From Thermotogota bacterium (GTDB lineage: Bacteria; Bipolaricaulota; Bipolaricaulia; UBA7950; UBA9294), in NCBI GenBank assembly GCA_039679545.1, contig JBDKUT010000108.1, forward strand, positions 1 through 44,385: a DNA stretch of 44,385 nt, in the 5' to 3' direction. Of the stretch, positions 40,572 to 44,385 are shown in pieces. The translations under genes and the position numbers were made by a program. Position 1 is the stretch's first letter; every line of letters begins with the position of its first letter. A model generated the notes under the pieces. The model was not told where the DNA came from, searched no databases, and saw nothing but the letters and a program-made list of their open reading frames with translations.

Positions 40572-41369
40572 CTATCGTTGGCACTTCGGGCAGAAACACG
40601 TCGACCGCCCGGCCTGGATGACCCGCTCGATCGTCTCTCTGCAACGCTCGCACGGTTCTCCCTCGCGTCCGTAGACGGCAAGGTGGTTCTGATATGACCC
40701 TCCCTCGGCCGCTGTCGGGCGGTAGTCGGACACGCTCGACCCGAGCGTCGTTCCGAGCTGTGCGACCGCCTCGCCGAGCACGCCGACGATTGCCTTGTGC
40801 AACCGGCCGATCTCCACTCCCGTGAGCTCGTTCGCCCGACGGCGCGGGTCGATGCGCGCCTGCCACAAGGCCTCTGCGGCGTAGATGTTTCCGATCCCCG
40901 CGACCTTCCGCTGATCGAGGAGGAAGGATTTGATCGGCGCCCGCGACTCACTCGTGAGCTTGCTGAGAACCGCTCGTGTGAACAGCGGATCTAGCGGCTC
41001 GACGCCGAGCGGCGCATCGTCCCCGTCTTCGCAAACATCAGCGGTTCCCAGCCGTCGTGGGTCGACGAAGTAAACGGCCGTCCCATCGTCAAGGTGAAGG
41101 ATCATGCGCACGTAGTCCCGTTCGCATTCGTCGCAGTCAAGCCGCAACCGTCCCGACATCCGCAGGTGCACGACCAGCCTTCGTCCGTCCTCGAACTCGA
41201 TCCGGATGTACTTTCCCCGCCGCACGATCGCGGCGATCCGCGCGCCGGCGATGTCCTCTGCAGTCACCGCAAGGCGCGTGTCGAGCACATCGGCCGACGC
41301 GATCGTCCGACCGACCGCCGGAGCCAACCCACGCACGAAGGTCTCGACCTCAGGAAGTTCAGGAGGCAT
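40572..41369 (-). CDS. mutM: Formamidopyrimidine-DNA glycosylase
   Basis: MPPELPEVE, RRGKY, HLRMSG, GIGNIYA, zinc finger CERC...CPKC. Confidence 0.93.
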   Translation of the reverse strand: MPPELPEVETFVRGLAPAVGRTIASADVLDTRLAVTAEDIAGARIAAIVRRGKYIRIEFEDGRRLVVHLRMSGRLRLDCDECERDYVRMILHLDDGTAVYFVDPRRLGTADVCEDGDDAPLGVEPLDPLFTRAVLSKLTSESRAPIKSFLLDQRKVAGIGNIYAAEALWQARIDPRRRANELTGVEIGRLHKAIVGVLGEAVAQLGTTLGSSVSDYRPTAAEGGSYQNHLAVYGREGEPCERCRETIERVIQAGRSTCFCPKCQR

Positions 41370-41940
41370 TGCGCGTCCTCCTTGCGCGGGAGCCGTCGGA
41401 CGCGTCAGGAGAACGTCTTCTCGAGCCGTTCTCCGGCGCGGTTCCCGCGGTCGGTGTGCTCACAGAAGGTGCCTGCGGCTTCTTTCCACGTTTGCCATCT
41501 CCAGTCGCGGCACCCTCAGGCCCGGGCTTCCCCTCTTCGCGGCACGACGCGCAGACCCCGAACGCATACGTTCGGATCGCCTCAACTTGGTGGCCGTCCA
41601 CTTCCTTACCCAGGCATCGCTGTTGTCGCGCGTCGATGTCGTAGACCTTCTCGCACACCCGGCAGCGGAAGTGCACGTGCGGTCCCGTATCTGCGTCGTA
41701 CCGCGCCGCGCCCTGGTCCATCGTCAACTGCAGGATCGCGCCCGCTTTTGTGAGCGCCTCGAGCGTGTTGTAGACCGTCGCCCGCGCGATTGTCGGGTAC
41801 GTCTTGTGCACTGCCGTATACACCTCGTCGGCCGTCGGATGCGCCTTCGTCCCCTCCAAGAACTCGAGGATCGCCAGACGCTGCATCGTCGGCGTTACTC
41901 CTGCATCGCGCATTCTCGCCATCCGCTTCTGGGGGGGCAT
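41359..41940 (-). CDS. perR: Fur-family repressor, PerR-like
   Basis: TMQRLAIL, HPTADEVY, ATVYNTL, HVHFRCRVC, CASC; heads the oxidative-stress cluster. Confidence 0.85.
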   Translation of the reverse strand: MPPQKRMARMRDAGVTPTMQRLAILEFLEGTKAHPTADEVYTAVHKTYPTIARATVYNTLEALTKAGAILQLTMDQGAARYDADTGPHVHFRCRVCEKVYDIDARQQRCLGKEVDGHQVEAIRTYAFGVCASCREEGKPGPEGAATGDGKRGKKPQAPSVSTPTAGTAPENGSRRRSPDASDGSRARRTRNAS

Positions 41941-41949
41941 AGTAGAGGC

Positions 41950-41978
41950 AATATAACTTTGGACCAAGTCTAAATCAA
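41950..41978 (-). promoter_or_regulatory. perR-cluster promoter with a Per-box-like operator
   Basis: TTGATT-17 nt-TATATT; imperfect palindrome TTTAGAC-TTG-GTCCAAA (41974-41958) covering the spacer. Confidence 0.65.
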
Positions 41979-42128
41979 GAGCCGTTTCGGCGCGGGTCAT
42001 CACTCGGTGAACCAGAACTCGGGGGCGAGCTACTCATTTTCGTTTGCGAGGAGTGAGTGCGAGTACAGAGCGCCGCCGGGCCGGATGCACAGGGTGTTCG
42101 AGAGAGTAGAGACAGAAAGGATTTCGCT

Positions 42129-44063
42129 ATGACGATCGCAGTGCAATCCGCGTCGGTTCACGATGCTGCTGTTTTCGACGAGCTTCGCGTGCACATCGAA
42201 CGCGAGATGACGTCGCGGGGTGTCCCGGGGCTCGCCGTCACCTTTGTCGAGGGGGATCGAGTTCTGTGGAGCGAGGGCTTCGGCGTCACCGACCGACGCA
42301 CGCAACGACCAATCACGTCGGAAACGCCGTTCAGCGTGCAATCCATTGGCAAGACGTATACCGCCACCGCGTTCTTGGTTGTCGCCACGCGCGGCCTTAT
42401 CAGCCTGGATGATCGGCTTCGGGAGGTGGTCCCCGAGTTCCGTGTCCGCAGCCGCTGGGGGGACAAGGAGTGTGACAAGATCACGTTCCGCCATTTGCTC
42501 ACTCATCGCTCCGGCTTGGGTCACGAGGCGCCGGTGGGGAACAACGACGACCTGCGTCCGTGTACGTTCGAGGAGCACATCCGCAGTATGGGCAAGACGT
42601 GGCTGCGGTTCCCGGTCGGCGAACGCTTTGGCTACTCGAACCTCGGAATGGATCTCATTGCGTACTCGATCGAACGGCTCACCGGAAAGGCATTCCCTGA
42701 CTTCGTGCGAGAGGACCTCCTCGTTCCACTCGGCATCACGACCGCGACGTACGATCCTACGGAGTTCTGTGCTCCCGGCCACAGCGGGGCACATGAGAGG
42801 CGGCGCGTCCCTGTGCCCATGCTCGGAGCCGGCGGCCTCTATATCTCAGCCAGCGATGCTGCGCGCTTCATCTCATTCCATCTGCGGGGGTGCACCGTGG
42901 ATGGGGTGCCCGTGGTTCGCCCGGACCTCCTGCGGGAGATGACGAGCGTTCAGTACGCCGCGGAGGGACAGAGGGGCGGATACGGACTCGGCATCGCTAT
43001 CGATTCTTCACGGGCTCTCGACGTGCTCCAGCATGGTGGTGGTGGCTATGGTTATGCGGCCGTGCAAGCATGGATGCCCGAAGCGAACCTCGGCGTCGCT
43101 CTCGCGATCAACCAGGAGGAGGCCTATGATCTTGGAGAGAGCGCGAGCCTGCCTGTCCTGGAGAGGCTTGCTGCGCTGCGAGGCTACGTCCGTCCTGGGG
43201 CGGCGCGCCCGCCGTTCGGCGGCGAGGTGGCCGTCGAAGTCGACTCGAATGAGCTACGCCGTCTGCAAGGAACCTTCCTCGATCGCGGACTTGCGTACGA
43301 AGTCCGGGAGGAAGCGGGGACGCTCCTACTGAATGGCCGGCCGCTGCGGCCCTGTGCGCCGAGAACATTCGCAACGCAAAGGGGAAACCGAATCACATTC
43401 AGGGTTGGAAGCGACGGCCAGCCACTCGAAATACAGGCTCTCGGTCCGTTCGTCTCTGGCGAGTTTGCGGTCGACCACACCCCGTTCGATTCCCCCGGTC
43501 CGAACAAGCCGGAGTGGCAAGAGCTCGTAGGCATCTATCGACTCGCGATCGAGGACGGCGATCTTGGACCGCAATGGATGCCGGTCGTTCTCAGGGACGG
43601 ATACCTTTGCGCTGAGCGTGGGGAGTGCAGGATGCGGCTTCACGAGCATGCGCCGGGTCTCTTCTTCACCGCCGAAGGCGACAGCGCCGAATTCGAGAAT
43701 GGGGAACTCCTTTGGGCCGGCGGAGCGCGCCTGCGCCGCGAATCGACTCCCCCATACAATCGCGTTCTGGCCCTCGTGACGGCTGACCCCAGCCACGAAC
43801 TCGCGAGTTGGGAGTCGCTCACGGGTCTGGCCAGCGCCTACCGAGCGCTTGGGGAGCACGAGATGGCTCGGCGTCTCCTGCGGGCCTGCGTCAAGATCCA
43901 TAAACCCTTGCCAGGTGCCCTCTACGGGCTCGCGCAAGCGAGCCACAGCGCGGGGGACGAGGAATACGCAAGCGAGCTCTGCCGCCTCGTCCTTGCAGCG
44001 GAGCCCGAGCACGAGGCCGCGCTGGAACTGCTGCGCATTCTGAGCGCCCCGAACGTCTCGTAG
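42129..44063 (+). CDS. Beta-lactamase-family serine hydrolase with C-terminal beta-rich and TPR-like domains
   Basis: SIGK (SxxK), LLTHRSG, YSN, HGG; TPR-like tail; AAAGGA SD before ATG 42129. Confidence 0.85.
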   Translation: MTIAVQSASVHDAAVFDELRVHIEREMTSRGVPGLAVTFVEGDRVLWSEGFGVTDRRTQRPITSETPFSVQSIGKTYTATAFLVVATRGLISLDDRLREVVPEFRVRSRWGDKECDKITFRHLLTHRSGLGHEAPVGNNDDLRPCTFEEHIRSMGKTWLRFPVGERFGYSNLGMDLIAYSIERLTGKAFPDFVREDLLVPLGITTATYDPTEFCAPGHSGAHERRRVPVPMLGAGGLYISASDAARFISFHLRGCTVDGVPVVRPDLLREMTSVQYAAEGQRGGYGLGIAIDSSRALDVLQHGGGGYGYAAVQAWMPEANLGVALAINQEEAYDLGESASLPVLERLAALRGYVRPGAARPPFGGEVAVEVDSNELRRLQGTFLDRGLAYEVREEAGTLLLNGRPLRPCAPRTFATQRGNRITFRVGSDGQPLEIQALGPFVSGEFAVDHTPFDSPGPNKPEWQELVGIYRLAIEDGDLGPQWMPVVLRDGYLCAERGECRMRLHEHAPGLFFTAEGDSAEFENGELLWAGGARLRRESTPPYNRVLALVTADPSHELASWESLTGLASAYRALGEHEMARRLLRACVKIHKPLPGALYGLAQASHSAGDEEYASELCRLVLAAEPEHEAALELLRILSAPNVS

Positions 44064-44227
44064 ACCGTTGCCCGCGTAGTCGTCGGACGCATCATGGAAC
44101 GGCTGCGTGCACGTCGCCCGCCGGGACGCGCGCTTTCGCCCCGTCGGAATCCTCCAGAATTGCGAAGCTGCATCGTTGGCGTTACGCCCGTATCTTGTAT
44201 CCTTGCCATCCTCTTCTCGGGCGCCAT
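44041..44227 (-). pseudogene. Decayed partial duplicate of the perR/fur 5' half
   Basis: MAPEKRMARIQDTGVTPTMQ / FAILEDSDGAKA...DVHAAV* / RPTTTRATVYETFGAL aligns with PerR residues 1-62 across two frameshifts. Confidence 0.85.
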
Positions 44228-44264
44228 AGCGGACGCCAGCTAGCTCTAGCCAGGCGCCGGGGTC

Positions 44265-44385
44265 AGATGCTGTATCGAATGTCAAGTCACCTCCTCGGCC
44301 GGAGCCCTGAACGGCTCGCCACTTTCGTAGATAGCATGCGCCAGCAGTAGAAGCTTCCTGGCTGCGGCGATGCGCGCCACTTTGT
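44265..44385 (-). mobile_element. Right end of an IS110-family element (rest lies beyond the window)
   Basis: Transposase C-terminus followed by TTGACA-TTCGATACAGCAT-CT end. Confidence 0.75.
44282..44385 (-). CDS. IS110-family transposase/recombinase, C-terminal 33 aa (partial)
   Basis: Manual translation KVARIAAARKLLLLAHAIYESGEPFRAPAEEVT*, matching the IS110 C-terminal A-x-ARKL...HA...PF helix. Confidence 0.75.
   Translation of the reverse strand, partial: KVARIAAARKLLLLAHAIYESGEPFRAPAEEVT

Follow-up and report, generated by a model that had tools for sequence, protein, structure and literature searches.

The right margin of the window, positions 44265-44385 on the minus strand, is in our estimate (probability roughly 90%) the right end of an IS621-type insertion sequence of the IS110 group that lies within a REP-like repeat. 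The window comprises contig C108 in full (44,385 nt), one of 163 contigs of a 2.35 Mb assembly that is 93.6% complete, and this contig ends 121 nt into the element. Judging by its relatives, the element would be about 1.23 kb long. The evidence consists of the layout of the right end and its recurrence elsewhere in the genome, of unoccupied target sites, of a left end on another contig whose putative guide segments match both target and donor, and of full-length relatives whose guides and flanks vary together.

Results

Layout and recurrence of the right end

Read on the minus strand, 44282..44385 is the 3′ end of a recombinase gene, comprising its last 33 codons and a TGA stop (44284-44282). 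The open reading frame (44383..44282) translates as KVARIAAARKLLLLAHAIYESGEPFRAPAEEVT up to the stop and runs unbroken to the contig end, where 44384-44385 form a partial codon; the C-terminus is homologous to that of the relatives described below. The stop codon is overlapped by TTGACA (44280..44285, minus strand), a −35-like hexamer that is conserved in relatives, and this is followed by the 15 nt TTCGATACAGCATCT (44279-44265) and then by the flank GACCCCGG. The coordinates given in the first-pass annotation for the ORF end, the stop, the hexamer, the 15 nt and the flank were all reproduced. The final 13 nt of the element, TTCGATACAGCAT (44267..44279, minus strand), close with seven nucleotides that are conserved in relatives and form the putative left-donor (LD) half-site ACAGCAT (44273-44267, minus strand); the left-end RNA contains ACAGCATCT in the same sense. 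The next two positions (44265..44266, minus strand) are the core dinucleotide CT, common to the element end and the target at right junctions, left junctions and unoccupied sites. Beyond the core stands GACCCCGGCGCC (44253..44264, minus strand), the right half of the target and part of the REP-like repeat, which is found at occupied and unoccupied sites alike. Its first five nucleotides on that strand, GACCC, are the putative right-target (RT) bases and are complementary to GGGTC in the left-end RNA. After the stop codon, 19 nt remain before the target begins.

The final 133 nt of C108 recur at the start of contig C87 (98.5% identity) and at C130:118-250 (95.5% identity). Because the same 121-133 nt stand at the ends of two further contigs in this genome, the layout of the right end is not a product of chance. 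Among relatives, the order hexamer, 13 nt and CT was recovered at 72 of the 80 loci in which the protein match reaches the C-terminus, and at L009 in addition. In these 73 right ends the hexamer, 13 nt ahead of the core, is TTGACA in 63, the last seven nucleotides are ACAGCAT in 71, and the core is CT in every case. Of the eight loci missed, two are cut short by the contig (L027 and L083), four have insertions that carry the end past the search window (L019, L025, L043 and L097), one has a replaced end (L052), and one has the hexamer GTGACA, which lay outside the pattern used (L085).

The recombinase and its full-length relatives

Relatives were collected by searching 41 genomes (the source and 40 relatives) with C130:1-250. 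Ten genomes matched, the source included, and 10 genome loci and 80 metagenome loci were fetched. The hosts of the genome loci are MAGs labelled Bipolaricaulota/Bipolaricaulia, 'Thermotogae', 'Atribacteria' and 'Gemmatimonadaceae'.

The 33-residue peptide of the window alone matched no Pfam family, its residues lying C-terminal to the Transposase_20 domain; its assignment to IS110 comes from the longer copy on C130/C134, which carries Transposase_20, and from the full-length relatives. The C134/C130 copy matches Transposase_20 (PF02371) at 48.8 bits against a cut-off of 21.3, the only such match in the MAG, and reads QSGTSVHGKSRISKRGN, a segment that aligns with the IS621 S241-G242 region in L005. 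DEDD_Tnp_IS110 (PF01548) had no match anywhere in the 93.6%-complete MAG. The proposal that the ORF belongs to IS110 was borne out by L005, a relative with the same C-terminus and right end, which has both DEDD_Tnp_IS110 (43.3 bits, cut-off 29) and Transposase_20 (76.6 bits). Of the two domains sought under that proposal, Transposase_20 is present in the genome's own C134/C130 copy, and DEDD, which would lie beyond the contig end, is seen in relatives. Every IS110-subgroup feature that we examined in sequence appears in this genome or in a full-length relative.

L005 further scores 150.2 bits (cut-off 140) on NF033542, 'IS110 family RNA-guided transposase', a score that applies to this relative only. 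The L005 gene has 319 codons from its ATG, and its DNA is 77-81% identical to the right ends of the present genome. Residues 1-311 of L005 align with the IS621 transposase (8wt6; E 4.9e-20, 75 bits), and the protein also aligns with ISCro4. In the alignment, L005 has residues identical to D11, E60, D102, D105 and S241-G242 of IS621, which PMC11208158 describes as catalytic or loop-forming. Compared over 1207 nt, L005 and L009 are 72% alike; conservation is highest in a noncoding stretch of ~250 nt upstream of the gene. The repeat finder reported no terminal inverted repeats in L005. The proposed layout of the element would comprise a noncoding left end of ~250 nt that encodes the bridge RNA, a recombinase of ~320 aa, and a 19-nt right end; the recombinase would combine a DEDD (RuvC-like) domain with a Tnp domain that carries the catalytic serine.

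GC-rich palindromic insertions of ~45 nt occur within the last ~25 recombinase codons of several relatives (L019:1790-1950, L025, L043, L045, L049, L057, L058 and L097), where they cut off or alter the C-terminus of the protein. They may represent a small hairpin-forming mobile repeat.

State of the copies

An account that we consider unlikely, and that still deserves discussion, is that the window holds a dead remnant, either a solo or truncated right end or a broken recombinase gene, and so records a past insertion only. The end of the contig 121 nt into the element is compatible with such a remnant, as is the lack of a DEDD match in the whole MAG. The genome moreover contains a truncated 3′ fragment of the same element on C134+C130, and it offers one left end (on contig C7) for three right ends; L019, whose left end is 99.4% identical to that of C7 over 156 nt, is disrupted, with an interrupted C-terminus and a degenerate right-end hexamer, CTGACC. 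Against a remnant, the reading frame of the window copy runs on unbroken until the contig stops, and contigs from the source runs continue for up to 37 nt past the end of the window without diverging. The element interior has ~3.5 times the depth of the flank (18.5 vs 5.2 in X1), with summed contig depth serving as a rough guide; run X3 covers parts of the stretch only, and the interior is fragmented in all four runs. The element portions of C108 and C87 are identical over 121 nt, and differences occur in the flank only, which suggests that the two are recent copies. Multi-copy insertion sequences usually break contigs in short-read assembly and binning, so that breaks within them are normal. 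The missing body fits the usual picture of a multi-copy insertion sequence that has collapsed out of a binned short-read assembly, although the window copy may still be a broken one.

The 3′ fragment on C134:1-160 + C130:1-250 (L110, L111) is ~326 nt long and includes part of the Transposase_20 domain; C130:1-66 is the reverse complement of C134:1-66. On C134 the fragment starts inside Tnp-domain coding sequence, directly after a complete target-like site, GTGAAGAT-TT-GACCCCGGCG, and both of its flanks show direct repeats of ~50 nt. The segment ACCCCGGCG is a short overlap between the element interior, where L019 reads YPGVNRQQ, and the target. Because the interior shares this segment with the target in this sublineage, the fragment likely arose by deletion through the short overlap. 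We dropped the idea that the repeat upstream of the fragment is itself derived from the element, as homology to relatives stops at approximately C134:142-151.

The boundary and the target

The right ends on C108, C87 and C130 are alike up to ...TTGACATTCGATACAGCAT-CT, continue with GACCCC-GG/AT-CGCC, and then differ. The two differences between C87 and C108 both fall inside the 12-nt flank. In the same genome, GAAGAT-CT-GACCCC is unoccupied at C87:~2592, C150:27340 and C64:~8515, where element-free copies of the flank adjoin GTGAAGAT-CT; a fourth site of the unoccupied type, beside the C134 fragment, has the core TT rather than CT. Since GACCCC..CGCC is present at sites without the element, it belongs to the target and not to the element. 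Three agreeing right ends, together with a flank that exists without the element, fix the boundary at the CT core, 44265-44266. The core proposed in the first-pass annotation is therefore upheld by other copies and by three unoccupied sites of the same genome. The target of the element is thus read as AAAGTGAAGAT-CT-GACCCC. In relatives, the sequence after CT is mostly GACCC and is unrelated beyond that. In runs X1 and X2, a possible source of the assembly, several contigs join the right end to differing flanks, with similarity beginning at 44253-44261.

It is highly improbable that the true end lies 12 nt farther out, at 44253, with GACCCCGGCGCC as part of the element. BLAST identity of the three copies does extend to 44253, but a like 12-mer adjoins GTGAAGAT-CT at the three element-free sites and in the same-genus genome G005, both C87/C108 differences lie inside GACCCCGGCGCC, relatives differ beyond GACCC, and the bridge RNA is complementary to CT+GACCC. 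A boundary at 44253 fails the unoccupied-site test and was rejected; the element ends at the CT core.

In the independent sediment run X4, a contig (record 24) agrees with 44106-44257 apart from 2 differences and then passes into the left target half, ...AGATCTTCACTTTT, with no element in between. This continuation, ...TGGCAGATCTTCACTTTTGG, complements the left half of the target; across the core it meets a variant right half, in which GCCA stands in place of GACCCCG. A further 30 nt follow on the contig, and their complement is the left flank of the unoccupied target at C87:2586-2640 (L107). Two readings fit the X4 site: the repeat unit may be longer, or copies of the target may have exchanged their flanks.

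Also beside the target, 44130-44229 of the window is a DNA copy, ~73% identical, of the 5′ part of a FUR-family regulator gene (41359..42003; Pfam FUR, 82.6 bits). The ORF of the copy (within 43922-44229, minus strand) starts MAPEKRMARIQDTGVTPTMQ, after which similarity is lost; by its sequence the copy looks like a partial duplicate or a pseudogene.

The left end and its guide segments

The first-pass annotation had predicted a left end of the form CT-NN-TAnnnT, and such an end was found on contig C7 of the same genome, which reads CT-CG-TACATT. The junction is ...AAAAAGTGAAGAT-CT-CGTACATT... (in a longer reading, the flank before the core is ...CACAAAAAGTGAAGAT), with the core at C7:17413-17414 and 166 nt from there to the contig end. 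Left ends were found for 71 of the 87 relatives examined. Five of their junction cores are cut by a contig end, and the 66 that could be read comprise 63 CT, two TT and one CC.

Guides for ACAGCATCT and for CT+GACCC had likewise been anticipated, and both are encoded in the left end. The first guide of C7, GGTGAAGATCGG, equals the left target (GTGAAGAT) plus C, in the same sense. A hairpin follows, and then GTGGGTCAGATGG, within which GGGTCAG complements CT+GACCC and ATG could pair with the donor CAT. The third guide segment, GGACAGCATCTGG, equals the left donor plus the core (ACAGCATCT), again in the same sense, and the contig ends within the hairpin that comes after it. A fourth guide, TACGAG, stands after that hairpin in L019 and in all relatives and is complementary to CT+CGTA, the core with the left end's first 4 nt; it was read from relatives because the left end of this genome stops before it. 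The GTC that follows TACGAG in relatives could pair with the final GAC/GAT of the left target. Within the present genome, the guides agree with their sites: GTGAAGATC with the C7 flank, ACAGCATCT with the right end, and GGGTCAG with the CT+GACCC flanks at C108, C87 and C130. In L005, the sole end-related inverted repeat reported by the repeat finder pairs the guide GGGTCAGATG with the junction CATCTGACCC.

In the plan described for IS621 (PMC11208160, PMC11208158), left guides pair with the bottom strand and right guides with the top, and handshake guides come next. On the sequence evidence, the arrangement of guides in this left end is the IS621 plan. We give practically no weight to an element of the IS1111/seekRNA type, or of another IS family, with a guide RNA downstream of the gene and TTGACA present by chance or as an outward promoter: nothing specific speaks for it, the window by itself being compatible, whereas only 19 nt lie between the stop codon and the target, the guides sit in the left end of ~250 nt upstream of the gene, and the L005 protein passes the IS110 equivalog model NF033542.

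The predicted fold of the bridge RNA

The noncoding left end of this IS621-type element is predicted to encode a two-loop bridge RNA. We folded 52 distinct left ends (<97% pairwise similarity) out of 62 unique ones, a step that the first-pass annotation had suggested, and a two-loop, IS621-like model fits them. In this model, 96.6% of cells are paired, compared with 30-45% when the partners are slid. Compensatory changes point in the same direction for the two inner hairpins, which contain all seven pairs in which both partners change (0 of 500 shuffles). The two outer stems do not vary and hence are uninformative, with no covariation, and the outer-stem pair of columns 100/150 forms in only 20 of the 52 sequences. 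In the RNAalifold prediction, the second loop has both its stems and the first loop its inner hairpin, and the first, target-binding loop is closed by a long-range alternative, GCCCTCCC with GGAGAGGGC. The IS621-like outer stem of the first loop was not reproduced by RNAalifold and is retained as an analogy only. The target-binding loop lies entirely within the 166 nt of left end on C7, as does the first guide for the donor. An Rfam scan (evalue mode) of L005 and L009 matched no family.

Guides and flanks among relatives

If the left-end segments act as guides, they should vary with the flanks of the copies that carry them. Of 55 distinct pairs of right guide and flank, 43 show exact reverse complementarity between the guide and the right-target 5-mer, nine show one mismatch and three show two; none of 5000 shuffles had as few mismatches, a test that is inflated by kinship among the sequences. 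Seven right guides depart from the consensus, and four of these match their own flank exactly (L028, TCCCC; L050, AGCTC; L051, GTCCC; L082, AACCC), each of these 5-mers being absent from the other 54 loci. The remaining three are off their flank by one (L087), two (L091) and one (L101). For the left-target 8-mer, agreement with the guide in the best register averaged 6.15/8 over 54 distinct pairs, relative to 4.84 (sd 0.14) in shuffles, the highest of 2000 being 5.33, and the same inflation by kinship applies. L057 was left out of this comparison, its left flank being the right end of another copy. The strongest sequence evidence that guides track their flanks is the four private, re-programmed guide/flank pairs.

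The target repeat and RAYT genes

The motif CCAAAAGTGAAGAT-CT-GACCCCGnCGCC occurs in G005 twice in 48-nt tandem units and once elsewhere, and these unoccupied copies mark the target motif as a genus-wide repeat. The two tandem units, each with an unoccupied motif, are at G005 C38:12482-12560 (L118:1453-1531). When the window flank and the C87 site were compared with five same-genus genomes, matches were weak or short only, with no orthologous unoccupied locus.

The target copy on C150 lies just upstream of a gene for a REP-associated tyrosine transposase (RAYT; 82.3 bits, cut-off 80; Y1_Tnp), and the C7 junction is at the 3′ end of a RAYT homologue that is 72% identical. The presence of target copies at these RAYT genes indicates that the element targets a REP-like repeat, and in this it resembles IS621, which itself targets REP repeats. 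According to literature abstracts, several IS110 elements target REP-like repeats.

At C7:17390-17430 (L106), the ORF of the RAYT homologue runs through the insertion junction (…TQKVKI-SYIA, then a stop); in that frame it has no N-terminal Y1 domain. The insertion adds four codons, since without the element the T of the core and the right-target GA would form a stop codon.

A broader reading of these observations is tentative, in our judgment possible without being probable. It holds that a clade of bridge-recombinase elements is spread across Bipolaricaulota-type genomes, that its guides have been re-programmed naturally, into at least five classes of right target and several of left target, and that the ancestral target was the core of a host REP-like repeat beside RAYT genes. 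Chromosomal flank exchange between target copies is a possible further part of it, because the X4 contig joins the right flank of the window to the left flank of the unoccupied C87 target.

The predicted circle junction

Joined across the core, the two ends read right-end TTGACA, 13 nt, CT, CG and left-end TACATT, which gives the 17-nt spacer that the first-pass annotation had foreseen. The left-end hexamer is TACCTT in 61 of the 71 left ends, TACATT in eight and TACCCT in two, with TACATT carried by this genome, L019 and six others. The TTGACA/TACATT pair of this genome agrees with the sigma-70 consensus at 10 of 12 positions, a consensus that may not be that of the host, and TACCTT, the form in most relatives, agrees at 3 of 6 only. 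A promoter scan of the integrated C7 left junction found no sigma-70-like site, as expected.

On one metagenome contig (L057:~560-660), a decayed right end, with TTGGCACA in its hexamer region and palindromic insertions, directly adjoins an intact copy's left end, with one CT between them. A promoter scan of this natural right-end/left-end junction found no promoter, the hexamer being degenerate. Such an arrangement may stem from an insertion in tandem, at the junction of the copy already present, or else from the capture of a junction.

For IS621 and its relatives, it is established that the circle junction reconstitutes a promoter (PMC11208160). By analogy with the IS621 work (PMC11208160, PMC11208158), the present element would excise as a circle that joins its right end, CT and its left end. 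The circle junction would set TTGACA 17 nt from TACATT, and the resulting promoter would drive both the bridge RNA and the recombinase. The two loops of the RNA would then hold target and donor, and a recombinase tetramer would exchange strands beside CT through a phosphoserine intermediate.

Discussion

The element described here is most simply read as a further programmable recombinase of a kind already known, a distant orthologue of IS621 with its own target and its own right-donor half-site. The first-pass annotation had suggested an uncharacterised programmable recombinase with its own target specificity. Uncharacterised is a fair word for this element; the family, on the other hand, has already been described, and the activity is ascribed to the element by analogy.

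The likeness to IS621 (Escherichia coli, PDB 8wt6; PMC11208160, PMC11208158) extends to a left-end bridge RNA, a DEDD+Tnp recombinase and a short right end, as well as to left guides in the same sense as the DNA with right guides complementary to it, three-base handshake-like extensions, and a right-end −35 and left-end −10 that face each other across the core. The core is CT in both, and the protein of the relative L005 aligns end to end with that of IS621. The left donor of IS621 had been given as ACAGTAT in the first-pass annotation, and a donor oligonucleotide in PMC13396178 contains ACAGTATCTTGTAT, which confirms it; the left donor here, ACAGCAT, is one base apart. The two elements differ in several respects. 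The relationship between the proteins is distant (75 bits). The target is ATCAGGCCTAC in IS621 (PMC11208160) and AAGTGAAGAT-CT-GACCC here, the right-donor half-site is TGTAT in IS621 and CGTAC here, and the left end, 191 nt in IS621, is ~250 nt here. The host here is an uncultivated Bipolaricaulota-type lineage, and the present element is known from sequence alone, a difference that applies equally to the comparison with ISCro4.

ISCro4 (PDB 9t56) and other engineered IS110 bridge recombinases belong to the same family, and ISCro4 aligns over the full length of the protein (E 1.1e-19) as a distant orthologue. ISPpu9 and ISPpu10 of Pseudomonas putida are IS110 elements whose natural targets are likewise multi-copy intergenic repeats, either REP or conserved. 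Host and target sequences differ from those described here, and ISPpu9 has a further gene, for a small RNA, downstream of its transposase gene; no counterpart was seen here.

The current understanding of IS110 biology is unchanged by this finding. For the annotation of the genome, the element explains four contig breaks (C108, C87, C130/C134 and C7). The orthologue tables of Durrant et al. might already list this clade. What the present analysis adds is a natural bridge-recombinase element, delimited in full and belonging to a phylum without cultivated members, together with its target, donor, guides, unoccupied sites and re-targeted relatives. Sets of this kind are useful raw material for orthogonal programmable recombinases, and they also show IS110 elements tracking the REP/RAYT repeats of their hosts.
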